This document shows positions 2,011 through 54,033 of a stretch of DNA of 61,498 bases, one piece after another. Origin of the DNA: an uncultured Methanosarcinales archaeon (lineage in GTDB: Archaea > Nanobdellota > Nanobdellia > Woesearchaeales > ARS49); NCBI GenBank assembly GCA_964360565.1, contig CAYHXI010000001.1, positions 1-61,498 on the forward strand, given 5' to 3'. A program made the position numbers and the translations under genes. The stretch's first letter is position 1. Each line of letters begins with the position of its first letter. The notes beneath the pieces were generated by a model, which saw nothing but the letters and a program-made list of their open reading frames with translations, did not search any database and was not told where the DNA came from.

Positions 2011-2132
2011 GAGTAGTATGTAGTCAGTGGTCTGTAGTCTTTGATTAATGGTTGGTGGCCTGTATTCAGTAGTGTAGATTTATTATCCACCAACAAATGA
2101 CTACTCACTACTTTCTACCGACCACTAACTAC
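2011..2132. repeat. GT/AC-word palindromic element, copy E1 (fills the nrdJ-cobO spacer)
   Basis: Outer stem 2020-2037 pairs with 2115-2132 (16 of 18 bp); inner stem 2050-2058 pairs with 2087-2095. Shares the 11-mer CTACCGACCAC (2115-2125) and the 14-mer TGACTACTCACTAC (2098-2111) with the other copies. Confidence 0.75.
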
Positions 2133-5167: not shown

Positions 5168-5220
5168 AAAAGTTTATAAATAACTTCGTTTTGAAACTAA
5201 TAAATTAGGAGGTGTTGTGT

Positions 5221-8911: not shown

Positions 8912-9095
8912 AGGATGGTTTATCTTCTGGAGGTTTTTAAATGTTTTTCCGGTTTAGCCGAAAATTTTCTTGAAAAACGCCATTTATTCAACTGATTTTT
9001 CGGTCAGAACCGAAAGGTTTCCGGTTTTTTCGCAAATCTTTCGGAATTTTTACCATAACACATTTTAATGGTAAATTCGAAAAATTTATTTTGTA

Positions 9096-12296: not shown

Positions 12297-12551
12297 TTAA
12301 AATTGTCTGAAATAACTTTCTTTTGAATTGTTTTGTGTTTTGTCTATCCAGTATGAATTCACGTTCTCCTTTTCCAGCTTTAAAAACTTTTTTCCCACTA
12401 ATTTTGCTGAAACTGATGTAAACCCAACTCCAATAAAATAAACAATTGAGAGAAGGACAGTATTAACTACTAAATTAACTTTGTCAGTAAAAGGTTTAAT
12501 GAATTCTGAAAATCGTTCAAAACCTCCCTTAATACTCCTCCAAATACTCAT
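12297..12551 (-). CDS. small membrane protein commonly seen beside carbamoyltransferases (SxtJ-like, tentative)
   Basis: 84 aa with one central hydrophobic segment (VLLSIVYFIGVGF). TATA-like box 12574-12581 lies 22 nt from the start. The family name is from memory only. Confidence 0.4.
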   Translation of the reverse strand: MSIWRSIKGGFERFSEFIKPFTDKVNLVVNTVLLSIVYFIGVGFTSVSAKLVGKKFLKLEKENVNSYWIDKTQNNSKESYFRQF

Positions 12552-12583
12552 AAGAATTGTTTTGATGATGTGGTTTTTAAAGA

Positions 12584-13714: not shown

Positions 13715-14080
13715 TTATTTTTGTGCAATGGTACTTAAATCTAACGGAGAATCCTGTACATATTTAAGATTTAGTTTAAGTGCTATTTCTGCTTTCTGAA
13801 GCTCTAAACCAAGATAAGCTGCATGTTGAAGAGAGGAAACTAGTTCTTCGCGAAGGATAGTATTGTACAGTTCTTCTGCATTTTTACCAACAATTTCCAC
13901 TCTCAGAACATTATCATTTGTGCAAAAACCTGCGCTTATTTCTTGAGTTTCTCTGTTGATTTTTATCAAAAAGTAGCCAGAAGGGTCTTGCTTCCATTCT
14001 TTATAGGTGTTGTAGCTGGCTTGAATTTTTTGGACTTTGGCTACTTTGATGTTATTCCAGCGGCCTTTTATATAACTCAT
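13715..14080 (-). CDS. DUF4346-like protein
   Basis: PSGYFLIKI ... HAAYLGLELQKAEIAL ... YVQDSPL pattern. Start moved to ATG 14080, 23 nt from TATA-like box 14104-14112; the track ORF extends to 14146. Confidence 0.5.
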   Translation of the reverse strand: MSYIKGRWNNIKVAKVQKIQASYNTYKEWKQDPSGYFLIKINRETQEISAGFCTNDNVLRVEIVGKNAEELYNTILREELVSSLQHAAYLGLELQKAEIALKLNLKYVQDSPLDLSTIAQK

Positions 14081-14171
14081 AAAATAATAATTAAAGAATA
14101 AAGTATTTAAAATGTATGCTATATTAGAAAAGGACAAAAGTAACACATAAAATAGTTTGTCCTTTTCAATT

Positions 14172-22826: not shown

Positions 22827-23726
22827 TTACTTTTTGTTCGTTATACTGAATTCAAGTGCCTTTTCTAATTTTGTTTGTTTTATTTTAAAGACAGTATTTA
22901 GTTTTTCAATATTATAAACCCTTGACTTATTCATGTTCTTTAATTGCACAATAATAGTCTCATCAATTAGTTTAATGAGGTTTAAAACATTTAAAAATAA
23001 TAATACTGGTGCTAGCCATATGTGTATGATTGATTTTTTTTGATTTTTTACACTTATACAAATTTTCAGAAATGCATTCATAGAGATGGCTTTATTCCCT
23101 GCCAGATCAAAAGTTCCAATGATATTATTTTGTATGGCTTTATCTAGGTATTTACATACATCTTTTACAAATATGGGTTGTAGTAAGTATTTACCACTGC
23201 CAGGTATTATTAGGATAGGCAGAGTATTAATCATACTATTAATTTTTTCTAGGAATCTCTCATTATTTTTTCCAAAAATAACCGTACATCGAAATATCGT
23301 GTGCGCATATATGGTTCTTACAAATTTCTCTGCATTAATTTTACTTTTGCCATAAAAATTATCATAAGAACAATAAACGTTATCTGTACTCATAAATATG
23401 ATTTTTGGAATATTCAGTAGTTTTGCGAGATAAACCGTGTTTCTTGTTGTTTGAATATTAGTGTGTAGACACAAATTATTTATTTTTGTATCTGCCGCCA
23501 AATGCAAAATGCAATCTATTTTTTCATTTAATTCTTCTGCTAATCTTTTAATAGATTCAATGGAGTCTATATCTGTGCGTATTATTCGAAAGTTTTTCAA
23601 TTTTAATAATTTAGGCTCTATTTTAGATGTCTTTCTAACTAGTAATATAAAATTATATTTATTTGAATACATATCTACGAAACACCTGCCAACGAAACCT
23701 GTGGCGCCTGTTACGATAATTCTCAT
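22827..23726 (-). CDS. NAD(P)-dependent epimerase/dehydratase-family SDR
   Basis: N-terminal Rossmann motif VTGATGFVG and a YxxxK context (FYGKSK). 4-nt overlap with the upstream radical SAM gene. Confidence 0.8.
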   Translation of the reverse strand: MRIIVTGATGFVGRCFVDMYSNKYNFILLVRKTSKIEPKLLKLKNFRIIRTDIDSIESIKRLAEELNEKIDCILHLAADTKINNLCLHTNIQTTRNTVYLAKLLNIPKIIFMSTDNVYCSYDNFYGKSKINAEKFVRTIYAHTIFRCTVIFGKNNERFLEKINSMINTLPILIIPGSGKYLLQPIFVKDVCKYLDKAIQNNIIGTFDLAGNKAISMNAFLKICISVKNQKKSIIHIWLAPVLLFLNVLNLIKLIDETIIVQLKNMNKSRVYNIEKLNTVFKIKQTKLEKALEFSITNKK

Positions 23727-25180
23727 GTTATTTTTTTTAATATTAATTTAAGAAAGTCGAGGAGTTGTCCTCTTTTAAATGCTCTTATAATATATTTTGG
23801 AGATAAATAGAACTTATTAAACGCTTCAGTCACTACTTTTTCTAAATATTCCTGAGTTAATTCATCTGAAATTTGCATTGTGGCAGTGTAGCCTCCAAAT
23901 TGATTATAATTCTCTGATTTTAACCATCCTTTCTCTTTAGCCATGTCGTGTAATTTTGTGCCAGGATATGGAGTTGCTATTTTGTATTCGACTTGACTGG
24001 GAAATAAGTCTCTGCTAAATTCAATAGTTTCTTTTATAGTTTCTCCGTTTGAACCAGGCAAACCTATTATGAAGAAGCAACTAGTTCTTATGCCTGAAAT
24101 TTCACAATAATTCACAATTCTCTTAAGATGATTTAAATCTATTGGCTTTCTATTAATTTGATTCAGAATGTCTTTGTGTATGTCTTCTACCCCGAAGTTT
24201 ATCGCGTGACAACCTGCTTTAGATAAAATATCAATCAATCCTTCAGTCAATAGTTCTGGCCTTGTTTCAATTACAAATTCTATTTTGAGTTGATTTTTAA
24301 TTATCAGATTGCATAATTCTTCTACCCTTTTTTGATTTAAAGAAAAAAGAGGGTCTCTAAAAACAAAACCTTTCACACTATATTTATCAACATCATATTT
24401 TAATTCATTAAATACATTTTCAGCACTTCGTGCACGCCATTTTAATCCTTGATTTTTAGTATACGGACAATATCCGCAATCGTAAGGACAACCTCTGGAA
24501 GATAGTATGCTTACAATTGGTTTAACATTTAACATGGGATAATATGAATATTTTTCGTAGGGAAATAAATCCCATTTAGGAAATGAAACTTTTTCTAGTT
24601 CATCTGCTTCAAGATGACTATTTAAATGATTTATTTTTATCTGGCCTGTATTTTGGTAAACTATTGCATCTATTTTGTCTAAGGGTTCTCCATTACATAT
24701 ACTCACTATGTTTCTTTCTACTTCACCTATTATGCCAATGTCAAAAAACGGCAACAGTTCTTTAGGTCGTTCAGTTATCATATCTCCTACACTTATAATC
24801 AGGCAATCGTTCAAATTATCCTTTATTTTTTTAGCAACCACATCTCTTTCGTATAAAAGACAACTTGAAGAAACTGCCATTATAATTAAATTTGGTTGAA
24901 ATTTATTTATTTCAGAAAGTGTAGCTTGAAGATCAATATTTTCATTTAGACTATCTATAACTTTAATATCAAATAATCCCGTTTTGTATAATATTGTGGC
25001 GCAATTAACTAGTTGTAAAACAGGCAATCTTACTGATGTGTTTTTAGCTTTTCTAATAATTTTCGTTAAAAACTTTTTGCCGAACGTATTATGAACGCCC
25101 ATGCCCCCCATGAGATCACGATTTATATAATCTGCATCAGGACTTGGAGGATTTAATATAATTATCTTTTTTTTATTCAT
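23723..25180 (-). CDS. B12-binding-domain radical SAM enzyme (class B)
   Basis: N-terminal Rossmann-like B12 domain (IIILNPPSP...), CxxxCxxC cluster motif SSRGCPYDCGYCPY, and ETRPELL and ATPYPGTK blocks. Confidence 0.85.
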   Translation of the reverse strand: MNKKKIIILNPPSPDADYINRDLMGGMGVHNTFGKKFLTKIIRKAKNTSVRLPVLQLVNCATILYKTGLFDIKVIDSLNENIDLQATLSEINKFQPNLIIMAVSSSCLLYERDVVAKKIKDNLNDCLIISVGDMITERPKELLPFFDIGIIGEVERNIVSICNGEPLDKIDAIVYQNTGQIKINHLNSHLEADELEKVSFPKWDLFPYEKYSYYPMLNVKPIVSILSSRGCPYDCGYCPYTKNQGLKWRARSAENVFNELKYDVDKYSVKGFVFRDPLFSLNQKRVEELCNLIIKNQLKIEFVIETRPELLTEGLIDILSKAGCHAINFGVEDIHKDILNQINRKPIDLNHLKRIVNYCEISGIRTSCFFIIGLPGSNGETIKETIEFSRDLFPSQVEYKIATPYPGTKLHDMAKEKGWLKSENYNQFGGYTATMQISDELTQEYLEKVVTEAFNKFYLSPKYIIRAFKRGQLLDFLKLILKKIT

Positions 25181-32099: not shown

Positions 32100-32972
32100 A
32101 TGAAAAAAATCTTAGTAACTGGAGGCACGGGCTTCATAGGTGAAAAAGTTGTTGAATTACTTTCTAAAAATAATCTAGTTTTCGTGCTAACCAGAAATCA
32201 TGATTTTAAAGATAGTAAAAATGTCAAATATATTTATGGCGACATTTGCAACGAACAAAAAATCAAAGAAATAGTAATTGGAAAAGACATCATAATTCAC
32301 ATGAGCGGGTCAATAAAAGGTTCTGATGAAGAAATATTCAAAACAAACATAGTTGGAACTGAGAATTTAATTAATGCTTGTAAAAATATAAACATTGAGA
32401 ATTTTGTTTTTATTAGCAGCGATGCTGTTTTTCAGAAGCACAGAAGTGGGTATTCTGAGAGTAAAGTTAAAGGAGAAGAAATAATCAAAAAAATAAAAAA
32501 TCATTGTATTTTAAGACCTGCCATTGTCTATGGTGAAGGAGATAAGATAAATCTTGGTAAAATAATTAACTTTGTTAAAAAATGGCCAGTCATAATTATT
32601 CCTGGTAATGGAAATAATAAAATGCAGCCAATATGTGTGGAGGATGTTGCAAAATATATTTCTATTGCTGCAACATCAAACATTCAAGGAGTTTATACTC
32701 TCGCTGGCTCAGATATTTTGACTTTCAATACTTTTATGGATGAAGCATGTTTAGTGTTGAATAAAAAATTACTAAAAATACATCTTCCTTTATTTTTCAT
32801 AATTCCTTTTGTTTGGCTTGTTGAAAAACTATTCCCTAATTTAGGCGTGAGTATTTCTCAAGTAAAAAATTTGAATTCTGATAGAGTTTATGACATTTCC
32901 GAAACAATAAAAACATTCAAACATGAGCCAATAAAAATAAAAGAAGGATTAAAGAGAACCATAGTACATTAA
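32100..32972 (+). CDS. NAD(P)-dependent epimerase/dehydratase-family SDR
   Basis: VTGGTGFIG Rossmann motif and YSESK. Alignable by eye with 22827-23726. Confidence 0.8.
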   Translation: MKKILVTGGTGFIGEKVVELLSKNNLVFVLTRNHDFKDSKNVKYIYGDICNEQKIKEIVIGKDIIIHMSGSIKGSDEEIFKTNIVGTENLINACKNINIENFVFISSDAVFQKHRSGYSESKVKGEEIIKKIKNHCILRPAIVYGEGDKINLGKIINFVKKWPVIIIPGNGNNKMQPICVEDVAKYISIAATSNIQGVYTLAGSDILTFNTFMDEACLVLNKKLLKIHLPLFFIIPFVWLVEKLFPNLGVSISQVKNLNSDRVYDISETIKTFKHEPIKIKEGLKRTIVH

Positions 32973-34444
32973 AGTTTGGTGTTTTGTCTTTTCTCTCTCG
33001 CAATTTCGAATCCGAACTTTGCCAAAATTTTTGCTTTTGAAAACCAGTTGCCTTTTCTAATCTCTCTGAAAAAGTAAGATGGTCGATAATAAAAGTTTTT
33101 GAATGCGAGAGAGCTTTGTTCTTCAAGATATTTTGGAGTTAATTCGTCATTTATTTGCATAACTGAATAATATCCTCCCAATTTATCATAATTTTCTTCA
33201 ATTATCCATTTGTTTTCTAAAGCGCTTTTGTACATTTTCGTTCCAGGATAAGGAGTTGCTACTTTGTATTCTGCATGACTAGGATTTAATTTCAAACTAA
33301 AATCAATAGTCTTTTTCAGAGTTTCTCTAGTCGAGCCTGGAAGACCCAATATAAAGAAGCAGGTTGTTCTTATACCTATTTTTTCTAAATAATTAACTGT
33401 CTTTTTTATAATGTCAGTATTTATAGGTATTCTAACGTTTTTCAGCACTTCCACATTCACATCTTCAATTCCCATATTTATAGCGGAACATCCCGCGAGT
33501 TTAAGTTTATCCATTAATTCTTCATCCAATAATTCAGGTCTAGTTTCTAATGCAAAATCAAGTTTAATTCCTCGCGCAATCATCAAATCACATATTTTCA
33601 TCGTTCTTTGTTTGTCTAGTGTAAACAGTGGGTCTCTGAAAAAAACACCTTTAAAGCCATATTTCTCATAATCTAAAGCCAGTTCTTCTACAACATTTTC
33701 CGGCGAACGCGCTCTCCATTTCAATCCTTGATTCTCAGTGTAAGAACAATAATGACAACCATAAGGACACCCTCTTGTTGAAATCAATGTTGCAACAGGT
33801 TCTTTTAGAATCAGTGGATAATATCTGTATTTTTTATAAGGAAACAAATCCCATTTTGGAAAAGGTAGCGCATCTAAATCTGTTCCAATTAAAAAAGGAG
33901 TATTTGAATTTGTAACTAATTTTCCTTCTTTAACATAAGATATTCCTGCAATATCTTTTAAGTCTTTATTTCTGCATATCTCTAAGAGACATTTCTCCAC
34001 CTCTCCACTTATGCAAATATCAAAAGGAGGTGAAATCAAATGAGGCATATACGGTAATGTTTCTCCAACAGTTATTATCTTACAATTTGGAACTATTTTC
34101 TTAATTCCTGCAGCAACAACATCTTTCTCAAACAAAATTCCTGAAGAAGAAACGGGCATCACTAAAAAATCAGGGTTGAAAAGAGATATTTCTTTAAATG
34201 TGACTGCAAGATTTTTTCCTTCATTCATAGAATCTATTACTTTTACTTCATGCTCTTGACTAGCAATTGTTGCAGCATAAACCAATTGAGTCACTGGAAT
34301 CCTTATAAACTTACTTTTAAAATCACTCAAAAGTTTTGCAAAAAGATCTTTACCAAAATTAATTCTCTGTCCCATACCTCCCATCTGATCCCTATTCAAA
34401 TAATTATTATCAGAAGCGGGTGGATTTAGCACTAAAACTCTCAT
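32969..34444 (-). CDS. B12-binding-domain radical SAM enzyme (class B), paralog of 23723-25180
   Basis: STRGCPYGCHYCSY cluster motif. Shared blocks FPKWDLFPY, NQGLKWRARS, ETRPELL and ATPYPGTK. TATA-like box 34468-34475. Confidence 0.85.
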   Translation of the reverse strand: MRVLVLNPPASDNNYLNRDQMGGMGQRINFGKDLFAKLLSDFKSKFIRIPVTQLVYAATIASQEHEVKVIDSMNEGKNLAVTFKEISLFNPDFLVMPVSSSGILFEKDVVAAGIKKIVPNCKIITVGETLPYMPHLISPPFDICISGEVEKCLLEICRNKDLKDIAGISYVKEGKLVTNSNTPFLIGTDLDALPFPKWDLFPYKKYRYYPLILKEPVATLISTRGCPYGCHYCSYTENQGLKWRARSPENVVEELALDYEKYGFKGVFFRDPLFTLDKQRTMKICDLMIARGIKLDFALETRPELLDEELMDKLKLAGCSAINMGIEDVNVEVLKNVRIPINTDIIKKTVNYLEKIGIRTTCFFILGLPGSTRETLKKTIDFSLKLNPSHAEYKVATPYPGTKMYKSALENKWIIEENYDKLGGYYSVMQINDELTPKYLEEQSSLAFKNFYYRPSYFFREIRKGNWFSKAKILAKFGFEIAREKRQNTKL

Positions 34445-43675: not shown

Positions 43676-44356
43676 TTAAATAATACTTTCAGGTTTATCT
43701 TTGAAAAATTCGTCTATTGCGGTTTTAACTCCTTTTGCAGTAGGGTAATCATGCGATAAAATAAATCCGCCTCGATTCATTTTTGAATAGATGAAATTAA
43801 GGGAATTTACTGTACTTTCGTGTGTGTCAACATCTAAATTGACAAAACAAAATCTTTTATCAGTCATGTTTTCAGCATCCTTGGGAAAATAACCTTTGTA
43901 AACTGAAACATTGACTTCTTTAGAGAATAATTCTTTAACTGCACTATAATCTGAATTAAAATCGCCATTTACAAATGTGTTGTCGCTTTCTTTGTCAACT
44001 TCTTTTGCGTCTTTTAGTCCTTCAAATGTATCAAATAAATACAAACTCTTAGCTCCTTTGACAGCGCATATTAATTTTGCGCTACCTCCTTTGTAAACAC
44101 CAATCTCCAACATATCTCCAGCTACTTTTGTTGAAGATTTCGCTAAAGAGAATAAAACAAATGCTTGGTGTGCAGACATTAACAGTTCTGTTTCTTTTTG
44201 AACTTGTTTAAAGATATTGAAGAAATCCGAATCAAATTGAACTATTTCTTTATTCTTTCGATTAAGATATCCTAGAGTTATGCGTTTAATGAATGATTTT
44301 GGTAAGGAAAATATTTTGTTTTCTAATACTCTGTAAAAAAGTTCTTTGAGTTTCAT
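43676..44356 (-). CDS. TylF/MycF-like (macrocin O-methyltransferase family) methyltransferase
   Basis: GDMLEIGVYKGGSAKLI, LYLFDTFEGL and VNLDVDTHEST. Confidence 0.65.
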   Translation of the reverse strand: MKLKELFYRVLENKIFSLPKSFIKRITLGYLNRKNKEIVQFDSDFFNIFKQVQKETELLMSAHQAFVLFSLAKSSTKVAGDMLEIGVYKGGSAKLICAVKGAKSLYLFDTFEGLKDAKEVDKESDNTFVNGDFNSDYSAVKELFSKEVNVSVYKGYFPKDAENMTDKRFCFVNLDVDTHESTVNSLNFIYSKMNRGGFILSHDYPTAKGVKTAIDEFFKDKPESII

Positions 44357-44358
44357 TA

Positions 44359-46401
44359 TTATTTCTCCATTAAGTTTTTGTAAACCTTCAAAGTCTCTTC
44401 AGCAGTATTCTTCCAACTGAACTTCTTTGCTTGCTCAAATCCTTTATTTATTAATTCTTCTCTCAATCTTTTATCTGTGAGAATTTTTTCCATTGCATTT
44501 TTTATTTCTTCGATTGATAAGGGATTTACCAATAATGTGGCATCTCCTGCAACTTCAGGCATAGAGGATGTATTTGCAGTGACAACTGGACATCCGCAAG
44601 CCATTGCTTCTAAAATTGGCAGTCCAAAGCCTTCGTAAAGTGACGCTAAAACGAATAAATCTGCAAGATTATATAAATAAGGCAAGTCTTCTTCATCAAT
44701 GTAGTCTGTGAAAATAATTTTATCTTGAAGATCGAGTTGCTTTATCTTTTCAAATATTGGACTGTAAAGCCAGCCTTTCTTTCCAACTATGACAAATTTA
44801 TGTGGAAAATTATTTTTCTTCAGATGGTGAAACGCTTCAATTGTTCTTTCCAAATTTTTTCTAGGCGAAAGTACACCAGTGAAAAGCAAGAATTTTTCTG
44901 GAAGAGCATACTTAGTTCTAATAGTATTCAATTTGGCAACATTTGTTATTCTTTTGTATTTTTCACCTACGCCTAAGTAAATTACTTTAATTTTCTCGTC
45001 CAATATATTGAAATACTGCATTATGTCTTTTTTTGTCGATTCTGAATCTGCGATTATTATGTCTGCATTGTTGACTGACTTTTTAAGAAAAAATTTAAAA
45101 TATAATTTATTTTCCATTGTAAAGCTTTCAGGATACTTAAAAAAAGATAAGTCATGAATTGTTATTGTGTATTTGCATTTTTTACTAAATGGCGCTAAAA
45201 AAGATGGACCGTGAAAAACATCTACATTGTTGTACTGTATTTCCTTTGCAAGCCAGAATTGCTCCCAGAATATTCTCATAAATCTTATTTTGGTTGGAAT
45301 TGAAGTTATGTAGTTTACAAAATTGTACTTTTTTTCAAGAGCGATTAGTGGCTCATGGTTGTTGAAGAATAAAACATACTTGTTCTTTTCATCTATTAAA
45401 GAGAGGTTTTTAACTAATTCTAGCGTGTATCTTTCTATTCCACTCATACTTCTTTGTAAATATCTGGCATTGATTCCTATTGTAGAATAATACGGCACAA
45501 ATTCAAAATTATGGTCTGATTGGTTGGGAAAATTTCTGCTAACTAACGCCTTGAGAAATCTTTTAACTATTGTGTTTTCTCTGCGTATCAAATTCAAAGT
45601 GATGAATGCTGGGCTGTAAAAAAACATATATGTGTGGAACAAAATTCTTTCAAAAAATGGTAAATTTCTATTGACAAATCTCAAACGATTTTTTGTAAAC
45701 AAATAAACAGATAATGGACTTTTATATCCTCCTGTGGAAGAAGAAACTTTGTGCCAAACTTTTGCTTTGTGAGAATAAAATATTTTTTTGCCTTGCTTTT
45801 GAATTTTATAGCAGAACTCAACGTCTTCACAATATGCAAAATAATAGGGGTCGAAAATATCTGAAGAAATATATTTCAAATTAATGAACATGGCGCATCC
45901 AGAAGCAAAAGATATTTCTCCATCAGAGTCATATTGCTTATTGTCTTCTTCTCCATATCCTATTGGAACACTCTTCGACTGCCAAGTTTTCAAAATAAAT
46001 CCTGCTGATTCTAAATTGTTTTTATTATGATAATTATATATTTTTGGGCTTACAATGGCAATATCTTCTCTTGAATTTGCAGTACTTACTAATTCTTTGA
46101 GAAAATTTGTATCTACAGTTGTATCGTTGTTTAATAGAAGAACATATTTTGAACCATTTTTTATTGCGGCTCTGACACCAATGTTGTTTCCCTCTGCAAA
46201 TCCATAATTTTTTGGATTTTTTATAAATATAACTTCAGGAAATAATTTAAGAAGATACTCTGCAGAATCATCACTGCTACCATTATCAACAACTATAAGT
46301 TCATAATTGTCATAATCAACATTTTTTATAGAGTTCAAACACTCTTCAGTATCTTTCTTTCCATTCCAGTTAAGGATTATTATGCTTATTTTTGGGGTCA
46401 T
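44359..46401 (-). CDS. bifunctional GT2 (N-terminal) + GT4 (C-terminal) glycosyltransferase fusion
   Basis: N-terminus ISIIILNWNG..VVDNGSSD..LLNNDT; C-terminus EGFGLPILEAMACGCPVVTA. Confidence 0.85.
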   Translation of the reverse strand: MTPKISIIILNWNGKKDTEECLNSIKNVDYDNYELIVVDNGSSDDSAEYLLKLFPEVIFIKNPKNYGFAEGNNIGVRAAIKNGSKYVLLLNNDTTVDTNFLKELVSTANSREDIAIVSPKIYNYHNKNNLESAGFILKTWQSKSVPIGYGEEDNKQYDSDGEISFASGCAMFINLKYISSDIFDPYYFAYCEDVEFCYKIQKQGKKIFYSHKAKVWHKVSSSTGGYKSPLSVYLFTKNRLRFVNRNLPFFERILFHTYMFFYSPAFITLNLIRRENTIVKRFLKALVSRNFPNQSDHNFEFVPYYSTIGINARYLQRSMSGIERYTLELVKNLSLIDEKNKYVLFFNNHEPLIALEKKYNFVNYITSIPTKIRFMRIFWEQFWLAKEIQYNNVDVFHGPSFLAPFSKKCKYTITIHDLSFFKYPESFTMENKLYFKFFLKKSVNNADIIIADSESTKKDIMQYFNILDEKIKVIYLGVGEKYKRITNVAKLNTIRTKYALPEKFLLFTGVLSPRKNLERTIEAFHHLKKNNFPHKFVIVGKKGWLYSPIFEKIKQLDLQDKIIFTDYIDEEDLPYLYNLADLFVLASLYEGFGLPILEAMACGCPVVTANTSSMPEVAGDATLLVNPLSIEEIKNAMEKILTDKRLREELINKGFEQAKKFSWKNTAEETLKVYKNLMEK

Positions 46402-46404
46402 AGT

Positions 46405-47382
46405 TTATTTTTGAAGGATGTATTTGTTCATCATTTTGTCTATGAGAAATTTAGGAATTATTTTTTCTAAATTTTTTATGTAATTTATATCGAAACCTCT
46501 GTGAAATCCTAACCAGCAATTGTTGCAGGTGGAGTTGTACTTCTTTTGCAATGAAACGGTATTTTCTGAACTCCATATTTTATCAAATTCTTTTTCATTT
46601 ATGTTTCCTAGAATTATGTTTTCATGCTGACATAATGGAACGTCTCCAGTTGGTAGTATTATTACTCTGGTAAATATGCTCATACAAGGCATTTTTATTT
46701 CTTTATTCAACCAACCATTATAATTTTTTAGATAAGTGCTTTTATGATTATCTAAAAAGTTTATTTTTTGCAGTGGTTGTTTTGTTTCCATTAAAGGCAT
46801 ATCACTGTAAATATTTTCGTATCCGAACTCCAAATTATTATCTTCACATAGTTTATTAACGTGATTAAAATCATCTTCAGTGTTCCATGGCGTGAACGTG
46901 TATGCTATTCTTATTTTTGTTATGTCTTTTAATTCTAAAATAATTCTCATAATGTTATCATATTTATCAACTCCTCTTATGTTTTTGTAAGTTTCTTTGT
47001 TTCCTTCTATACTTAGTTGCAATTTGGGTATTTTAAATTCCTTCACTGCACCTATAACTAAATCAGTCATTATTCCGTTAGTTAGAAGTACATAATTTTT
47101 CCCCTTCATTAGAGAAAGTATTTCTCTCCATCGAGGATGCATAAAAAACTCTCCTCCTTCCAATCCTATGCTCGCTGATTTTAATAAGTATTTTGAATTT
47201 AGTGCGTTTTTTATTGTTTCTATACTCAAATCATATTTTGGTTTTGCTTCCCAAATGTAGCAATGTTTGCATAATGAATTGCACCTATTAGTTACATAAA
47301 TCATTAAATTAGATATTTTTCTGCTTTTTATTAGATAGCTGTACATTAATATTCGTTTAATTGCATTTATTTGTTCTTTCAT
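46405..47382 (-). CDS. radical SAM enzyme with C-terminal SPASM/twitch-like Cys-rich domain
   Basis: CNSLCKHCY cluster motif and C-terminal CMS...PLCQH...CNNCW cysteines. Confidence 0.75.
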   Translation of the reverse strand: MKEQINAIKRILMYSYLIKSRKISNLMIYVTNRCNSLCKHCYIWEAKPKYDLSIETIKNALNSKYLLKSASIGLEGGEFFMHPRWREILSLMKGKNYVLLTNGIMTDLVIGAVKEFKIPKLQLSIEGNKETYKNIRGVDKYDNIMRIILELKDITKIRIAYTFTPWNTEDDFNHVNKLCEDNNLEFGYENIYSDMPLMETKQPLQKINFLDNHKSTYLKNYNGWLNKEIKMPCMSIFTRVIILPTGDVPLCQHENIILGNINEKEFDKIWSSENTVSLQKKYNSTCNNCWLGFHRGFDINYIKNLEKIIPKFLIDKMMNKYILQK

Positions 47383-48401
47383 GAGCTTACTTTATTTCCT
47401 GCAAATTTGCAAATTCTTTCTATTATTTCTATGGTTCTTATAGAGTCTTTAAGAGAATTGTGAGGAGTTTTGTTATTTTCTATAGACTCGATAAAATGTT
47501 TTAACTCGGGAACGTATCCATTAGTATATACTGTATTATTTTCCAGACTTGGAACTACTGGATTTAATTCCCACACGGATTTGTTTCTGAGAGTTAATTT
47601 AGACATATTTTCAGCAATTGCTGAATTTAATTCACCAATTACTTCTATTTTTTCAGTGTCTTTGCATTTTTTTCTTGATGATGATATAAATAATTTCCCA
47701 GTAACATTATTTTTGAAGTTTAAAGTCAAAGTTATTGAATGAGGAGAACTATTTTTTGTTTCATAATTTATGCTTACTATCTGTCCCATCAAATATTGTG
47801 CTAAGTCAATGTGGTGTATTCCTAGTTCATACAACATCTCCTCAATGGAAGAATGTCGTCCAACATAAAATTCAGATTTATATGAAGTTATTTTTCCCAA
47901 TTCTCCATTTACTATAACTTCTTTTAGTTTAGTATAAATTGTACTAAATCTTTTTTGGTAACCTACCATTACTTCTTTTTTCTTTAGTTTAGCCAGCTCA
48001 ACAATATCATTCAATTCTTTAACTGTTGAAACTGGAGGTTTTTCCACAAAAACGTGTAAATTATTATTTATTGCTCTAGTTATTATTTTAGGATGTAATT
48101 TTCGATTCACACAAATAACCACTCCATCTAATTTTTCTTCTTTCATCATTTTTTCATAATCTAAATAATGCCTTTCTGCGCCAAAACGTTCTGAAGTATT
48201 TATTGCACTGTAATAATGTTTTGCGCATACAGAAACTAGATTCGCGTCAGTATATGTTAATGCAGGGTAAAGATTTATTGTCGCGTGTTTTCCACAACCA
48301 ATGAACCCTATTCTCATTTTTCTCTTCTTATAAATTATCATATTTTTTAATTGATTTTTTAAGATTCTTCCAAAATTCAAAATGTTATTCATAGATTTCA
48401 T
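47379..48401 (-). CDS. Gfo/Idh/MocA-family NAD(P) oxidoreductase
   Basis: MRIGFIGCGKHA Rossmann motif and EKPP. TTTATAAA box at 48424-48431, 22 nt from ATG 48401, supports the long start; internal ATG 48317 is an alternative. Confidence 0.75.
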   Translation of the reverse strand: MKSMNNILNFGRILKNQLKNMIIYKKRKMRIGFIGCGKHATINLYPALTYTDANLVSVCAKHYYSAINTSERFGAERHYLDYEKMMKEEKLDGVVICVNRKLHPKIITRAINNNLHVFVEKPPVSTVKELNDIVELAKLKKKEVMVGYQKRFSTIYTKLKEVIVNGELGKITSYKSEFYVGRHSSIEEMLYELGIHHIDLAQYLMGQIVSINYETKNSSPHSITLTLNFKNNVTGKLFISSSRKKCKDTEKIEVIGELNSAIAENMSKLTLRNKSVWELNPVVPSLENNTVYTNGYVPELKHFIESIENNKTPHNSLKDSIRTIEIIERICKFAGNKVSS

Positions 48402-48497
48402 TGTTCTTGAAGAGTATTATTCGTTTATAAACATTCACTCCACAAATTATCGAATTAGTATATTTTATAAACTATCCTGATACATCGAGGAATTAGA

Positions 48498-49757
48498 ATG
48501 GTTTTAATATTTTTTATAAATCCCTCTGATGTTTTTTTGGAAAAAAAAGGAGACAGACCTCCTTTAGGATTGATGTACTTGAGTAGTTATATTAAACAAT
48601 TTAACTATACTGCTAAAATATGGGATTTGAATCACGATTCTCAGCAAGAATTAGAAAAAAACATTATTTCTGAAAACCCCGAGTTTTTATGCTTCAGCAT
48701 AGCAGTAACTAGCTATAGATGGTCTGTAGATTTTATTAAAAAAATAAGAAAATCAGGTTATTCTGGAAAAATTATTGGAGGCGGAAATCACATAACTAAC
48801 ATAGCTAATGATTCAGAACCTCAACAATATTTTGATTTTTTAGTTATTGGTGATGGTGAACTCGCTTTAAAAGATATTTTAGAAAATAAAGCAACAAATA
48901 AAATTATTAGAAGTCCTGATATCGAAGATATAAATTTGTTGCCATTTCCAGATTATGCTGGGATAGATATGGACAGATATACGATGACTGTTGAGGGCAA
49001 AAAAGGAGCTCAACTGGTTTCTAGCAGAGGGTGCGTTTTTTCATGTGTTTATTGCGGTTCTGCAAAAATCAAGAAAGTTAGGCAAAGAAGTCCTAAAAAT
49101 GTACTTGAGGAAATGAACTTGTTGTATGATAAATATCAAATTAGAGGATTCTATTTTGGGGATGATATTTTTACTCTTAATTTTAAAAGAACGATTGAAT
49201 TATGTCAACTGATTAAGGAAAATTTAGCAGGAGTTGTTTTTAGAGTGACAACTAGATCAGATTTATTAAATTATGAGGTTTGCAAAGCTTTGAAAGATGC
49301 GGGATGTTCAATTGTTTGTATTGGTTTTGAAAGCGGAAATAACACAATTCTTAAAAATATAAATAAGGGAGAGACTATTGAGCGTCAACGTAAGGGTGTT
49401 GAATTATGTCATAACCTTGGACTAAAGGTTAAAGGGTTTTTTATCATTGGTTTACCTGGCGAAACACGTCAAACTGCTATGGAAACAATACAATTTGCCA
49501 AAAGTTTGAATCTTGCTTATGCGGATTGTTATCCGATAACTCCATATCCTGGAACTCCTTTGTGGGATAACCCTGAAAAATATGGTTTAGAAATAATTAA
49601 ACCTATTGATGGCAATTGGGACGAATATTATCAAGTAGGCATTAAAGGAGCGAAACACGAGATAAAATTAAAGCACAACAATTTGTCGCAAGAAGAGATA
49701 ATAGAATTTGTTGAATTATTTAATAAAGAAGTATGCAGAAAAGGATTAACATACTGA
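48498..49757 (+). CDS. B12-binding-domain radical SAM enzyme (class B)
   Basis: SSRGCVFSCVYCGS cluster motif and an N-terminal Rossmann-like domain. TTTATAAA box at 48464-48471. Confidence 0.8.
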   Translation: MVLIFFINPSDVFLEKKGDRPPLGLMYLSSYIKQFNYTAKIWDLNHDSQQELEKNIISENPEFLCFSIAVTSYRWSVDFIKKIRKSGYSGKIIGGGNHITNIANDSEPQQYFDFLVIGDGELALKDILENKATNKIIRSPDIEDINLLPFPDYAGIDMDRYTMTVEGKKGAQLVSSRGCVFSCVYCGSAKIKKVRQRSPKNVLEEMNLLYDKYQIRGFYFGDDIFTLNFKRTIELCQLIKENLAGVVFRVTTRSDLLNYEVCKALKDAGCSIVCIGFESGNNTILKNINKGETIERQRKGVELCHNLGLKVKGFFIIGLPGETRQTAMETIQFAKSLNLAYADCYPITPYPGTPLWDNPEKYGLEIIKPIDGNWDEYYQVGIKGAKHEIKLKHNNLSQEEIIEFVELFNKEVCRKGLTY

Positions 49758-49776
49758 TTTTTGGAGAAAATAAAGA

Positions 49777-51285
49777 ATGAGCAAGAAGAAAATACTTTTA
49801 TTCAGCCCGAAACCAACAAAGAATCAGTACTATAAATACGCTCCTTTATCTCTTTTAGCAATATCTTCTTTATTATCTGAAGAATATGAAATTAAAATAA
49901 TTGTCGCTCGTCCAGGAATAGATTACGTGGCTCAAATTATTGAAGAGGCAAAAGATTCATTTGCAGTTGGTATAACAGTTCTGACAGGATATCCTATTAA
50001 GGAAGCATTGGACGTTTCAAGAAAGATAAAAAAGATACGTTCAGACATTCCAATAATCTGGGGAGGCAGACACCCAACTATAGCGCCTAGGCAGACTATA
50101 TCTGACTGTGCGGTAGATTTTGTAATTGTTGGGCAAGGAGAGCGTTCTTTTTCCGAGTTAGTTAAACAAATAGAAACAGCAAAAGAATTCGAAGAAATTT
50201 CCGGTTTAGTTTGGAAGAAAAATGGGGAAATAATTTTTAACAAAGAGAGAGCATTTGAAAATATTAATAATTTTCCTTCACTGAATTACTCTTTGCTGGG
50301 AAATGTTGATAAATATATTCAAACGTCTGAATTGGGTAATAGAACAATAAATTATATATCTAGTATTGGCTGTCCTTACAAATGCAAATTTTGTTCTGAG
50401 CCTAAAACTTGTTATTGCAGATGGAGCGGACTGACTGCAGAAAGAGTAGTATCTGAAATAACTCAGTTAGTTAAAGATTATAGAGTTGATGGTGTAATAT
50501 TTAATGATAGTAATTTTTTTGTTGATAAAAATAGAGTTAAGAAAATTGCAGAAGGATTCATAAATAATAAATTAAATATTCGTTGGGGAGAAGTAAATGG
50601 TAGAGTTGATACTTTATTAAACTTGGATGATGATTTGTGGCAATTAATTGCTAAAAGTGGCTGTCATAGAATATTAATTGGAGCTGAATCCGGCTGGCAA
50701 AACGCGCTGGATTTAATCGACAAAAGGATAACTCCTGAACAAATCTTAAAAGTCACTGAGATTTGTAATCACCATAATATTTGTTTGATTTTTTCTTTAA
50801 TGATTGGACTGCCATTCTCAGATTTGAAAAATATGGCTAAAAATACTTTTATAGAGATGGAATTTACACAGACGTGTAAATTAATAGATGATGTACTGAG
50901 AATTTCCTTAATTAAACATCATTTTTTGCTTTTTGTTTATACTCCGTATCCAGGCTCAGTTTTCTATGAAGATAGTATTAAATTAGGATTTAAACCTCCA
51001 ACGAATTTGGAAGAATGGGCAGAATTTGAATTAAACAAACTGTATATTCCTTGGGTGCCTAAGAAGTATAATTTTATTTCAGGCCAACTTACAGAATACA
51101 TTTTTCCTTTATTGTCTCAGATTTATAAATCGAGATTGAATTCATTCAAACATTTCAAATATCTTGCAATTGTTGCCTATTCTTTTTTTCAAAATCTTGC
51201 TGTGTTACGTTGGAAATTAAAATTCTTTCATCTGTCTATTGATTATTTTTTATTTAGAAAATTAATTTTTATGAGAAATAAATAA
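49777..51285 (+). CDS. B12-binding-domain radical SAM enzyme (class B)
   Basis: SSIGCPYKCKFCSE cluster motif and an N-terminal Rossmann-like domain (ILLFSPKP...). Confidence 0.8.
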   Translation: MSKKKILLFSPKPTKNQYYKYAPLSLLAISSLLSEEYEIKIIVARPGIDYVAQIIEEAKDSFAVGITVLTGYPIKEALDVSRKIKKIRSDIPIIWGGRHPTIAPRQTISDCAVDFVIVGQGERSFSELVKQIETAKEFEEISGLVWKKNGEIIFNKERAFENINNFPSLNYSLLGNVDKYIQTSELGNRTINYISSIGCPYKCKFCSEPKTCYCRWSGLTAERVVSEITQLVKDYRVDGVIFNDSNFFVDKNRVKKIAEGFINNKLNIRWGEVNGRVDTLLNLDDDLWQLIAKSGCHRILIGAESGWQNALDLIDKRITPEQILKVTEICNHHNICLIFSLMIGLPFSDLKNMAKNTFIEMEFTQTCKLIDDVLRISLIKHHFLLFVYTPYPGSVFYEDSIKLGFKPPTNLEEWAEFELNKLYIPWVPKKYNFISGQLTEYIFPLLSQIYKSRLNSFKHFKYLAIVAYSFFQNLAVLRWKLKFFHLSIDYFLFRKLIFMRNK

Positions 51286-51311: not shown

Positions 51312-51971
51312 TCATTCTAACTTTTTAACGCAAAATAATTGATACGCATACTGAGGTTTATTTCTAACAAATAACTGAGTCAAATCTGAAATCATCAACC
51401 ATAATAGTCTCGGTTTAAACTTAATTTGAGATTTAAGCGTCCTGAGATTGATTAGACCATTCATTCCTGAAACAAAATATCCTAATTTTTTAAATTCATT
51501 AACTGTCCAGCCACTTTTATGTTCTTGATATTTGTTAACATACCCATCCTGAGCAACAAAACTGTGTGCGCCCTGAGAAATAAACCCATTTGGAGTAAAT
51601 ATTATTACTTTTTTCTTTGCGATTTTTTCCATTTTGCGAATAAGCTCTAATCCGCCGTTTTTATCTAAGTGCTCTATTAGGTCTAATGCTACAACACAAT
51701 CGAATTGTTTTGGTTGAAAATATTTATCGATTTGCATTACATTTGCGCAATAATATTTATCATGTATTTTGCTAGTTTTACTCTTTAATAGAGCTGGTTT
51801 GAAAATGTCTATGCCAACTTTGTAAACGTTTTCAGTTATTAGTTTGAGGGGAGATGATTTTCCACAACCAACATCTAAAATACTTCGCACATTTCTTAAT
51901 TCTTTCAATAATTGCTCTTCATATCCTGGCAAAATTTTTTTATACTCTTTTTTCATTGCTTCTTTTATCAT
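51312..51971 (-). CDS. class I SAM-dependent methyltransferase
   Basis: ILDVGCGKSS motif I and VVALDLIEHL. The track ORF opens at TTG 52004; the first ATG at 51971 is chosen, and 51956 is also possible. Confidence 0.7.
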   Translation of the reverse strand: MIKEAMKKEYKKILPGYEEQLLKELRNVRSILDVGCGKSSPLKLITENVYKVGIDIFKPALLKSKTSKIHDKYYCANVMQIDKYFQPKQFDCVVALDLIEHLDKNGGLELIRKMEKIAKKKVIIFTPNGFISQGAHSFVAQDGYVNKYQEHKSGWTVNEFKKLGYFVSGMNGLINLRTLKSQIKFKPRLLWLMISDLTQLFVRNKPQYAYQLFCVKKLE

Positions 51972-52749
51972 TTTGTAATTTCCACAGTTTAGCTCGTTCA
52001 ACAAATAAGTAAAAAGTCACTAAAACACTCAGAACTAAGCCATAAATGCCGTCTTTATAGTTTTTTCGAAATATGAAATAATGTGGAAGAAACAAGGCAG
52101 GTTCTATAAACAAATAATAAAAATTAATTCGTCCGATATTTTTTGCCAGCAAGCCAGATTTTTGTCCGTCGTTAGATAAATTTGCAGACCAAGTAGTATA
52201 CAGATTCATTTTTCTGATAAATGTTTCGATGTCTGGATAACCATAATGATAAATTGGACTGTGTATTCTGCCAATTTTGCCTTGCACATCTAGAGGAGTG
52301 TGGGAGTCTAAACTGCTGTAAACTCCTTTGTTTTTTTTGAATAGTCTAATTATTTTAGTTTTTGTCCACAAAGGCCCAACAAATTCTTTACCAAAAAAGA
52401 ATGGTTTAAAATTGAAATAAAACGAATCATATTGATTTTCTTTTATTTTTCTTAAAATTTCCTGCTTGCAGGAGTCGGTTAACACTTCATCTGCATCAAC
52501 AGATAAAATCCATTCGCCCGAGGCTTTAGTGAATCCGAAATTTTTATTGTGGAGTGAGGCATCATATTTCCCTCCATTTCTAATGTAAAATTTACTTGTG
52601 TATTTTTTAGCTATTTCTGCAGTCTTATCTGTGCTTTCATTATCAATAAATATTATTTCATCAACCCATTTTATACTTTCGAGACAGTTCTTTATTTTAT
52701 CTTCTTCATTTTTAGCTACTATTACTGCAGATATTGTTATTTTTTTCAT
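51940..52749 (-). CDS. GT2-family glycosyltransferase
   Basis: ISAVIVAKNEE, IDNESTD and SVDADE motifs. Confidence 0.8.
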   Translation of the reverse strand: MKKITISAVIVAKNEEDKIKNCLESIKWVDEIIFIDNESTDKTAEIAKKYTSKFYIRNGGKYDASLHNKNFGFTKASGEWILSVDADEVLTDSCKQEILRKIKENQYDSFYFNFKPFFFGKEFVGPLWTKTKIIRLFKKNKGVYSSLDSHTPLDVQGKIGRIHSPIYHYGYPDIETFIRKMNLYTTWSANLSNDGQKSGLLAKNIGRINFYYLFIEPALFLPHYFIFRKNYKDGIYGLVLSVLVTFYLFVERAKLWKLQNDKRSNEKRV

Positions 52750-52752
52750 TTT

Positions 52753-54033
52753 TCACTTGAATACACAAGATATGTTTTTTATATCTTTCGTATTTACTGA
52801 GAGCGAATAAGTTGTGTTTAATTTTCTTTTGATGAACAGCATATATGCCAAGATAGTTAGTGAATATAGAACTGAGTGAATTATTCCTATTCCTTCTATT
52901 CCATTATTTGGAACAATCAAGTAGGAAAGAAATATTGTCATTACAAGTAACAAAATATTGTTTAGTAATATGATTCTTAGTTTATTTATTGCTATGAGAA
53001 TCGTGCTAGAATATGTTCCGAACGCCAATATCGCTCCTAAAGTCACAAATAAAAACAAGTATTTTTGAGCCCCGACATACTCTGCAAAAAATATTGGGAT
53101 AAATCCATCTAGCAAAAAATATAACGCTGCGCTTAGAAATAGAAGAGAATAAACTGCGAGTTTTAAATAGGCATCAGACAGTTTCTGAAATTTCACGAAA
53201 TCTTTTTTAAAGTAATATTCTGAAAAATACGGTAGCAAAACTTTATCTAAAGCCAGCGGAAATATTGAAAGGACAAATATGGTTATCTTAGATAAAAAAT
53301 AATAGTATCCTAACTCTTCGGGAGGTCTGTAGTTGGTTAAAAAATATATGAATACGAACACTATTGATTGGGCCAATATGGGTATTATTGTCGATTTTTT
53401 GGCAAAAGATAAAAATTTTCCATCTGAGTACTCGGGACAAATTATGTTGAAATCAACATGTTTGATTAATGCCGAAGATACTGCGAGAGAGAGGAGTGTT
53501 GCAATTAACAAACTGTATAGTGGAGAATAAATATTGTAGCCAAGCCAAAAGAAGAAAAGCACCATTAAAAAATTCGAAGTGTATAATATGGTTTCGACTA
53601 TCACAAAATAGTTTACTTTTTTTAATCCTAAAAAAGTTCCTTTAAATACTTCATAAATTGAGGTGATAAAGAATAATGCTGCAAGTAATTTGATGTATTG
53701 AGATATTTGTTGCGAGAAAACATACGAGATAAAATCTGAGAAAATGTAAATTAATATACTGAGTGCAATTCCAGATAGTATGGCCCACTTTAAACCTTTA
53801 AGATATATTGATTTTGAATTTCTCTCTGAAATAAATTTTGTAACTGTGTTAGAAATCGCTTGAGGAAATATCGTGAAAAAAAACAACACACTTAAAGCAA
53901 GACTTAAAGAACCAAAATCCTTCGGACTCAAAAACTTTGCAATAACAAAAAAAGTGAATAAATTAATCAATTTAGATAAATGAAACCAGGTTCCTAACAA
54001 ACCTATGTCTTTGATGATTTTTATTTTTTCCAT
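52753..54033 (-). CDS. Wzx-like (MOP superfamily) flippase
   Basis: 426 aa, about 12 TM segments. Confidence 0.65.
   Translation of the reverse strand: MEKIKIIKDIGLLGTWFHLSKLINLFTFFVIAKFLSPKDFGSLSLALSVLFFFTIFPQAISNTVTKFISERNSKSIYLKGLKWAILSGIALSILIYIFSDFISYVFSQQISQYIKLLAALFFITSIYEVFKGTFLGLKKVNYFVIVETILYTSNFLMVLFFFWLGYNIYSPLYSLLIATLLSLAVSSALIKHVDFNIICPEYSDGKFLSFAKKSTIIPILAQSIVFVFIYFLTNYRPPEELGYYYFLSKITIFVLSIFPLALDKVLLPYFSEYYFKKDFVKFQKLSDAYLKLAVYSLLFLSAALYFLLDGFIPIFFAEYVGAQKYLFLFVTLGAILAFGTYSSTILIAINKLRIILLNNILLLVMTIFLSYLIVPNNGIEGIGIIHSVLYSLTILAYMLFIKRKLNTTYSLSVNTKDIKNISCVFK

Follow-up and report, generated by a model that had tools for sequence, protein, structure and literature searches.

What a group of enzymes from the radical S-adenosylmethionine (SAM) superfamily may be doing among the surface-glycan genes of an uncultured archaeon is the question raised by the locus studied here, at positions 46405–51285 of a stretch of 61,498 nt (contig CAYHXI010000001.1; the whole stretch is called the window below). 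A radical SAM enzyme and a Gfo/Idh/MocA oxidoreductase are encoded there on the minus strand, facing a tandem pair of radical SAM enzymes with B12-binding domains on the plus strand. The explanation that we favor, with moderate confidence, is that these genes belong to two independent sugar-tailoring modules of a surface-glycan island, placed back to back and each with a TATA box of its own. A sugar-tailoring role for the region is well supported, and the substrates are very probably glycan sugars, whether free, nucleotide-linked or lipid-linked. To our knowledge, nearly all known radical SAM chemistry on sugars belongs to the making of antibiotics (butirosin, apramycin, gentamicin and hygromycin); here it would operate in ordinary surface-glycan loci of archaea and bacteria of ultra-small size, which attach to hosts through their surfaces.

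Gene map, promoters and operons

An open reading frame (ORF) map reproduced exactly the coordinates that a preliminary description of this DNA had given for the genes at 46405–51285, and Pfam profile search recovered the domains it had named for the four focal genes (P0001–P0004). All Pfam scores quoted for genes at 43676–51285 exceed the curated cut-offs. Glycosyltransferases are named by family (GT2, GT4 and so on), and lengths are in amino acids (aa).

43676–44356, minus strand: TylF-family (macrocin-type) sugar O-methyltransferase; Pfam TylF 69 bits, cut-off 23
44359–46401, minus strand: GT2-GT4 fusion glycosyltransferase, 680 aa; Pfam GT2 and GT4
46405–47382, minus strand: P0001, predicted Twitch-type radical SAM enzyme, 325 aa; Pfam Radical_SAM 50 bits, SPASM 41.8 bits
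47379–48401, minus strand: P0002, Gfo/Idh/MocA oxidoreductase, 340 aa; Pfam GFO_IDH_MocA N- and C-terminal domains
48402–48497, no strand: divergent spacer, 96 bp, with two palindromic TATA boxes TTTATAAA
48498–49757, plus strand: P0003, B12-domain radical SAM enzyme "a", 419 aa; Pfam B12-binding 49.9 bits, Radical_SAM 104 bits
49777–51285, plus strand: P0004, B12-domain radical SAM enzyme "b", 502 aa; Pfam B12-binding 57.9 bits, Radical_SAM 53.6 bits

Both boxes reported earlier for the spacer are present, at 48424–48431 and 48464–48471, with 23 nt to the oxidoreductase start codon and 27 nt to the start of the first B12-type gene. They had been read as one divergent promoter and are instead two separate TATA boxes, one per operon, each facing its own start codon, an arrangement that fits two back-to-back archaeal TATA-box promoters giving leaderless or nearly leaderless transcripts. 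The word is its own reverse complement and is only weakly enriched in the window (19 copies against 12 ± 3.6 expected, with at least 19 in 5 of 100 shuffles); its information lies in its placement, not in word enrichment. Copies of the word at 5173, 22785, 26763, 31338, 38423 and 42622 stand 23–37 nt 5′ of other start codons, so that, with the spacer copies included, eight or more start codons are preceded by it at that distance. From this pattern, the host would have a highly regular TATA box and mRNAs that for the most part lack leaders. Gene spacing bears out the two operons first described, one of four genes on the minus strand and one of two radical SAM genes on the plus strand. The minus-strand junctions are a 4-nt overlap between the oxidoreductase stop and the P0001 start, a 3-nt gap, and a 2-nt gap from the GT2-GT4 fusion to the TylF gene, and 19 nt separate P0003 from P0004. 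Two divergent operons are thus likely on spacing alone.

The predicted Twitch-type enzyme and its conserved partners

P0001 belongs to the radical SAM superfamily, with the CX3CX2C motif at C34/C38/C41 and PF04055 above cut-off. It had been labeled SPASM-type, a label that does not hold. SPASM domains carry a seven-cysteine motif, CX9-15GX4C ... CX2CX5CX3C ... C, with two auxiliary [4Fe-4S] clusters, and Twitch is a truncated SPASM-like domain of a beta-hairpin and helix holding a single auxiliary cluster. The C-terminal domain of P0001 has just four further cysteines, C233, C251 (after G-x4), C286 and C289, invariant in 36 of 36 aligned family members, and neither CX5CX3C nor the seventh cysteine was found in the sequence or in the 36-member alignment. 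The Pfam SPASM match arises because the model covers the first half common to SPASM and Twitch; the second half is missing, so that one auxiliary cluster is to be expected. We take P0001 to be a Twitch-type enzyme with a predicted single auxiliary cluster, and its AlphaFold2 (AF2) model (predicted local distance difference test, pLDDT, 95.4) has a beta-hairpin at 239–260 followed by helices, as in a Twitch domain, in addition to a basic amphipathic N-terminal helix. The only other conserved cysteine column in the alignment is C179, present in 30 of 36; it was considered as a hydrogen-donor cysteine of the HygY/NeoN type and rejected, lying near the end of helix 169–181 in the model and not in a barrel-top loop.

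The family of P0001 is small, with 43 clusters among 5.8e9 proteins and, among 1.84e9 representatives, about 65 full-length members above 200 bits and 259 at E≤1e-30. NCBIfam gave P0001 no match that came near its cut-off. Foldseek against the PDB places BlsE first (template modeling score, TM, 0.66, E 3e-11), followed by SkfB, CteB, SuiB and anSME, and profile search against the PDB gives SkfB as best (3e-19, residues 28–289), then CteB, with BlsE third.

P0002 is a member of the Gfo/Idh/MocA family in which the Rossmann motif GxGxxG/A, the EKP motif and the catalytic HxxD pair are present as GFIGCGKHA, VEKPP and IHHID, and these are conserved in the oxidoreductase partners of other loci. Its best NCBIfam matches, UDP-N-acetylglucosamine (UDP-GlcNAc) 3-dehydrogenase (118 bits) and IolG (114 bits), are both far below cut-off. 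An Asp after strand beta-2 marks NAD-specific members of this family, and all 14 aligned partners have C-[AT]-[KR] in place of it; P0002 probably prefers NADP(H) and would hence have a reductive role. P0002 and all partners begin with a basic, amphipathic extension of about 28 aa at the N-terminus, which supports the upstream start codon of P0002.

The association of these genes was followed through 31 family loci in the genome_contigs collection, in a genome scan built on 13 closer P0001 sequences. An oxidoreductase gene lies within about 1.3 kb of the Twitch radical SAM gene in 26 of the 31, and two of the exceptions are contig ends. The oxidoreductase precedes the radical SAM gene, co-directionally and at 1–4 nt, in the window, L009, L020 and L034; the order is reversed in L004, L006, L008 and L012, and the two genes are convergent in Chitinophagaceae. 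Adjacency kept through rearrangement is a classic sign of functional coupling, and the present pairing, kept through changes of both order and orientation, is such a sign. Beside the pair in about 21 loci is a GT2 of about 350 aa homologous to the window's GT2 half, which (residues 1–290) is 29–34% identical to the triad GT2 of L009, L014, L024, L027 and L031. The window operon is therefore the same triad of oxidoreductase, Twitch enzyme and GT2, with a fused GT4 and an appended TylF gene. The best NCBIfam match of the GT2 half is the rhamnosyltransferase family TIGR01556, at 64 bits and below cut-off.

The clade nearest P0001 (41–49% identity) comprises an unclassified archaeon, Anaerolineales, WOR-3, Omnitrophota and Bathyarchaeia, and its loci also hold B12-type radical SAM, PMT_2, GT4 and GT9 genes. 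P0001 was found in none of 60 genomes of same-family or same-order relatives of the host, and the module has therefore been acquired horizontally. About 24 Chitinophagaceae have it as well, and three of these, Flavitalea sp. BT771, Terrimonas sp. NS-102 and Paraflavitalea speifideaquila, are in culture. In Chitinophagaceae a conserved protein of about 500 aa is encoded directly upstream of the radical SAM gene. Nine transmembrane segments are predicted in this protein, which has a DDYD motif following the first of them, resembles a GT-C glycosyltransferase, and had no match in a Pfam search. Full-text literature searches did not find a module of radical SAM, Gfo/Idh/MocA and GT2 genes, or such islands in DPANN archaea, described; the module and its presence in culturable bacteria are new here. 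Its occurrence in cultured Chitinophagaceae makes its sugar chemistry testable in the laboratory, which could annotate the uncultured archaeal copies.

It is possible, and we suggest it only tentatively, that the triad, with the GT-C-like protein in Chitinophagaceae, is an undescribed and horizontally mobile pathway that makes and installs a rare sugar, and that it serves, beside cassettes of B12-type radical SAM genes, as one interchangeable cassette in a combinatorial radical toolkit for surface variation in DPANN and in the candidate phyla radiation (CPR). The sugar would be an epimer or a deoxy or keto sugar beyond the reach of ordinary nucleotide-sugar enzymes, and the holders of the pathway would be culturable aerobic soil Bacteroidota, uncultured anaerobic bacteria, DPANN, Bathyarchaeia and at least one phage-like contig.

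Two side observations concern this family. In two Chitinophagaceae loci, L037 (10001–11103, on the chromosome of P. speifideaquila BL16E) and L038, the Twitch gene is split into two ORFs, which may reflect a pseudogene or a sequencing frameshift; the adjoining GT2 is intact in both and the oxidoreductase in L037 only. The phage-like contig, a 48-kb Logan contig (L007), has a Twitch radical SAM relative, 42% identical, and a second radical SAM/SPASM gene (8001–8948 and 12547–13350) adjoining GT2, GT4 and methyltransferase genes. Small ORFs are numerous on this contig, and there are PHROG hits to an HNH endonuclease, a DNA repair exonuclease and a ribonucleotide reductase fragment.

The tandem pair of B12-domain enzymes

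The preliminary description assigned P0003 and P0004 to class B, and the domain part of that label stands. CX3CX2C is found at C179/C183/C186 in P0003 and C199/C203/C206 in P0004, PF04055 is above cut-off in both, and the B12-binding domain PF02310 (49.9 and 57.9 bits) clears its cut-off of 32.1. As a functional label it is not sustained, the best match of P0003 being the cobalamin-free AprD4. For each of the four B12-type radical SAM enzymes in the window NCBIfam gives HpnJ as the best match, at 109–196 bits (171 for P0003 and 109 for P0004, cut-off 578), and the PhpK P-methyltransferase family is second for P0003; among the named class B subfamilies (HpnJ, PhpK, BchE, AprD4, QCMT/MJ_0865, HpnR, BzaD and GenK-like), P0003 and P0004 fall below every NCBIfam cut-off, and relative to the cut-offs every match other than HpnJ is lower still. 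A recent tandem duplication as the origin of the pair is ruled out by their identity of 25%.

That one or both are cobalamin-independent 1,2-diol dehydratases of the AprD4 type, making deoxysugars with a reductase partner, is a realistic alternative, although we think it somewhat improbable. AprD4 is the best PDB sequence match of P0003 (1e-22 over the core) and of P0004 (1e-11), and with the AF2 model of P0003 (pLDDT 91.7) it leads the full-length Foldseek matches (TM 0.79 and 0.74). According to a review, AprD4 sits within the similarity network of B12–radical SAM enzymes without binding cobalamin, and both AprD4 and ArsL have related domains that do not bind it (PMC12931638). A short-chain dehydrogenase/reductase (SDR) gene follows P0003 orthologues in L092, L095 and L104, and P0222, a 37%-identical relative of P0003, is fused to an SDR epimerase/dehydratase. 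Against this alternative, both proteins score above cut-off for the B12-binding domain, P0003 can be aligned through its N-terminal domain with the cobalamin domain of TokK (E 3e-6), no SDR adjoins the tandem pair in the window, and the cobalamin-dependent TsrM, QCMT and OxsB have almost equal fold scores for P0003 (TsrM, QCMT as 9CCB, OxsB, CysS and TokK, all aligned along the whole of the P0003 model, TM 0.62–0.76). For P0003 the odds between a methylase and AprD4-like chemistry appear roughly even.

Whether B12-domain enzymes can be loaded depends in part on the host, the homologues of whose proteins are named Woesearchaeota, Nanoarchaeota or Aenigmarchaeota, many from Hainich groundwater samples. 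It is a small-genome, DPANN-type archaeon (assembly of 1.46 Mb in 156 contigs, 30% GC, 89.6% complete) with archaeal markers such as a Hel308-type helicase and an AglJ-like GT2. In the window a BtuR/CobO-type ATP:corrinoid adenosyltransferase gene (1399–2010) adjoins that of the B12-dependent ribonucleotide reductase NrdJ (2129–4333); the cell therefore uses cobalamin and depends on salvaging it, which bears on that question of loading.

The orthologous group of P0003 comprises about 50 clusters at 42% identity or more, almost all from DPANN. Its neighborhoods are always glycan loci, with partners that differ (GT4, GT2, SDR, PterinBD-DUF4346, methyltransferases), and no universal partner was found among the orthologue loci examined; SDR, NeuB and a further B12–radical SAM gene lie near the orthologue in two loci. 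P0004 has a larger, unnamed family: upward of 470 relatives were found in DPANN, Patescibacteria and Verrucomicrobia, and in every case examined the gene lies in an operon with many glycosyltransferase and methyltransferase genes, often alongside more radical SAM genes.

A PterinBD-DUF4346 gene adjoins P0003 orthologues in three unrelated loci (L091 8262–8678, L098 2258–2599 and L104 6824–7177) and also occurs in the window (13715–14146), 35 kb from the P0003 gene; its small product may serve these enzymes as an accessory factor. Intein/Hint domains are present in two DPANN homologues of P0003, P0174 (724 aa) and P0199 (702 aa). Proteins that harbor inteins are usually conserved and important.

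Independence of the two halves

Convergent with the tandem pair is a block of three minus-strand genes (51312–54033), identified by Pfam.

51312–52004, minus strand: class-I methyltransferase
51940–52749, minus strand: GT2
52753–54033, minus strand: Wzx-like flippase

A near relative, L089, encodes P0004 and P0003 at 86% and 73% identity and keeps, on its right side, the arrangement of the tandem pair followed by methyltransferase, GT2, flippase, helicase, GT2, GTPase and GT4. The 10 kb to the left of its pair hold an acetyltransferase, an amine oxidase, PMT_2, another B12–radical SAM enzyme, a GT2 and a deacetylase, and no oxidoreductase/Twitch operon. The tandem pair thus stands beside other genes, and the two halves are therefore independent modules. 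Among the 60 same-family or same-order relatives, an orthologue of P0003 is found in one and an orthologue of P0004 in one, and these are different genomes. The island is a mosaic of exchangeable cassettes.

Glycan context and the search for a peptide gene

The preliminary description noted no precursor-peptide ORF beside the radical SAM genes and preferred a sugar or lipid to a peptide made on the ribosome and modified after translation (RiPP) as substrate. The absence of such an ORF and the preference for a sugar over a RiPP are upheld. Apart from the 96-bp spacer, the gaps run from −4 to 26 nt and leave no room for such a gene, and the sole short ORF of the spacer is AT-rich, encodes 32 aa and overlaps the oxidoreductase start. 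The search for conserved short ORFs that it had proposed for the flanks of homologous loci covered 210 intergenic ORFs of 18–95 aa within 4 kb of a radical SAM gene in 36 loci and gave no precursor candidate; nothing meaningful was conserved across clades, the two matches being the same contig counted twice and a 26-residue match at chance level. All examined relatives of P0001, P0003 and P0004 lie amid GT2, GT4, GT9, PMT_2, flippase and methyltransferase genes, in archaea, CPR and other bacteria alike, and homologues of all four focal proteins are found among glycosyltransferases, methyltransferases, flippases and GT-C-like genes.

Proposed pathway and alternatives

Beyond the observed domains, cysteine motifs, operon spacing, conserved neighborhoods and absence of a peptide gene, we infer substrate identity, step order, cofactor preference and reaction types as follows. 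Module 1 would be the minus-strand operon of Gfo/Idh/MocA oxidoreductase, Twitch radical SAM enzyme, GT2-GT4 fusion and TylF-type O-methyltransferase. P0001 would abstract hydrogen from a carbon of a sugar (or cyclitol), with the auxiliary [4Fe-4S] cluster as electron sink, and yield a keto intermediate either by dehydrogenation of the BtrN/SpeY type or by loss of a neighboring hydroxyl. P0002, probably NADPH-dependent, would reduce the ketone to give an epimerized or deoxygenated residue, which the GT2-GT4 fusion would install on the growing glycan together with the next residue and the TylF-like enzyme would O-methylate. This specific redox-pair chemistry is speculative, and we consider it rather doubtful in its details. 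Module 2 would consist of the P0003 and P0004 pair with the convergent methyltransferase, GT2 and flippase, and would modify glycan sugars further by radical chemistry, through either C-methylation dependent on cobalamin or dehydration of the AprD4 kind.

Several findings weigh against the two-module explanation. The best match of P0003, AprD4, is a non-cobalamin enzyme (PMC12931638), and cobalamin binding is a prediction for both P0003 and P0004. The NCBIfam matches of the three radical SAM families are 3- to 10-fold below cut-offs, and these families have no characterized member. By best match the triad GT2 looks like a rhamnosyltransferase and not a polyprenyl-phosphate sugar synthase, and tailoring may take place on a nucleotide sugar, on a lipid-linked sugar or on the completed glycan. 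The fold matches of P0001 after BlsE are enzymes that modify peptides (SkfB, CteB, SuiB and anSME). The match of P0001 to BtrN is weak (E 0.24 with a single sequence and 0.0016 with a profile, region 230–286), BtrN was not found among the top 50 fold matches, and SpeY ranks 39th at TM 0.32; with kinship to BtrN and SpeY this marginal, what carries the dehydrogenase analogy is the way the cluster is arranged.

Tailoring of a lipid or head group, that is, of a membrane lipid or of a sugar or cyclitol linked to polyprenyl phosphate, as in the HpnI/HpnJ/HpnK scheme and in calditol synthesis, seems unlikely, and it overlaps with the explanation in two sugar-tailoring modules, differing only in the sugar carrier. 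The place of HpnJ as best NCBIfam match of the window's four B12-type enzymes speaks for it, although at 109–196 bits against a cut-off of 578, as do the basic amphipathic N-terminal helices of P0001 and P0002 and a hydrophobic C-terminal tail on P0004, although predicted transmembrane segments are absent from all four focal proteins. Also in its favor are the GT-C-like membrane protein upstream of the Chitinophagaceae radical SAM gene, PMT_2 in L002, L009 and L089, and the match of P0002 to inositol dehydrogenase IolG, almost as good as that to UDP-GlcNAc 3-dehydrogenase; the triad GT2 is again not, by best match, of the type expected for a polyprenyl-phosphate sugar synthase.

It is quite improbable that P0003 is a Fom3-like cobalamin-dependent C-methyltransferase acting on a cytidylylated phosphonate, with a glycan that bears methylated phosphonate. 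The suggestion comes from a Tara marine archaeal scaffold (L092, 515–8260), in which a 53%-identical orthologue overlaps a preceding Fom1-like fusion of cytidylyltransferase and phosphoenolpyruvate (PEP) mutase, with a thiamine pyrophosphate (TPP) decarboxylase, an Fe-alcohol dehydrogenase and a cupin protein upstream, and PhpK as second-best NCBIfam match of P0003 is in keeping with it. PEP mutase (PF13714) was, however, not found in the host's 1.46-Mb, 89.6%-complete assembly, the orthologue loci L091, L093 and L095–L104 have no phosphonate genes, and L095 has the downstream block of SDR, NeuB and B12 genes seen in L092, yet no PEP mutase. A phosphonate role for P0003 was thus set aside, as one attractive context against a host and other loci without PEP mutase. 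The L092 orthologue itself is possibly an archaeal Fom3 analogue.

A RiPP pathway, in which the Twitch/SPASM-like and B12-type enzymes would mature a ribosomal peptide by thioether or epimer formation and C-methylation, is very improbable: the nearest solved relatives of P0001 after BlsE by profile and fold (SkfB, CteB, SuiB and the epimerase EpeE/YydG) and the ApyD and rSAM_ocin_1 methylases among the weak NCBIfam matches of P0003 and P0004 point toward it, and against it stand the lack of precursor space and of any meaningful cross-clade short ORF reported above, the absence of a RiPP recognition element (RRE) leader-binding domain, protease or RiPP-typical transporter, and conserved partners that are an oxidoreductase and glycosyltransferases.

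Comparison with known systems

No family-level match links these proteins, as judged by sequence, to the aminoglycoside Twitch enzymes, BlsE, AprD4/AprD3 or the class B methylases. BtrN, SpeY and HygY, which act on secondary alcohols of sugars or cyclitols in aminoglycoside pathways, share with P0001 a radical SAM core (about 250–330 aa) and a short C-terminal one-cluster domain with an all-cysteine auxiliary [4Fe-4S] cluster, and P0001 has the pattern C-x17-C...C-x2-C, which we take to be that of BtrN. They are not known to have an obligate Gfo/Idh/MocA or GT2 partner and occur in antibiotic clusters, not in surface-glycan islands. A BtrN-like dehydrogenase by kinship was rejected: the cysteine spacing agrees, but the sequence match is marginal and BtrN is missing from the top 50 fold matches, and it is kept as a mechanistic analogy only. 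BlsE (cytosylglucuronate decarboxylase of blasticidin S; PDB 7VOB) is the best fold match of P0001 and has a sugar-nucleoside substrate, but is 14% identical, with a sequence match limited to the radical SAM core (residues 28–138), and no uronic-acid genes adjoin P0001.

The AprD4/AprD3 system for C3′ deoxygenation in apramycin, a radical SAM 1,2-diol dehydratase with an NADPH reductase, has the two-enzyme logic proposed for module 1, in which a radical step yields a ketone and a nicotinamide-dependent reduction comes next. Among solved structures AprD4 comes nearest to P0003, which it matches in size and domain order, but the identity is 21%, and P0003 and P0004 score 94 and 60 bits with NCBIfam rSAM_AprD4, cut-off 500; AprD4 is of the B12-domain type without an auxiliary cluster, whereas the partner of the window's oxidoreductase, P0001, is the predicted Twitch enzyme. 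GenK, GenD1, Fom3, TokK and QCMT, class B methylases whose substrates are sugars or small activated compounds, resemble P0003 and P0004 in having an N-terminal Rossmann B12-binding domain followed by a radical SAM core, and one P0003 orthologue lies in a Fom-like cluster; class B methylases of 550–680 aa have an extra C-terminal domain that P0003 does not, and its cobalamin binding is predicted only. In the Arn-type (ArnC/ArnD/ArnT) and HpnI/HpnJ/HpnK schemes, a sugar is put on a lipid by a GT2, altered by tailoring enzymes, and made into the final product by a membrane transferase or some other enzyme. Chitinophagaceae and several of the archaeal loci likewise have a GT2 next to tailoring enzymes and a membrane protein resembling GT-C. 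The tailoring here differs in being by a radical SAM enzyme and a Gfo-type oxidoreductase, and there is no clear sign that the GT2 is a polyprenyl-phosphate sugar synthase.

These distinctions correct errors that annotation pipelines are likely to make, namely SPASM in place of Twitch for P0001, class B methylase in place of AprD4-like for P0003, and two operons taken as one unit.

Other features of the window

The methyltransferase ORF at 51312–52004, as listed with a TTG start at 52004, shares 65 nt with the end of the GT2 gene upstream of it; translation probably begins instead at an internal ATG a few codons downstream. The count of five radical SAM genes in the window was borne out, the other two being at 23723–25180 and 32969–34444, and the whole 1.46-Mb assembly has 19. 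This had been called a very high density, but five in 61 kb is modest beside related islands such as L002, with four in 17 kb, and L133, with three in 13.6 kb. Glycan islands rich in radical SAM genes recur in DPANN, CPR and Omnitrophota, and five such genes are ordinary for the class.

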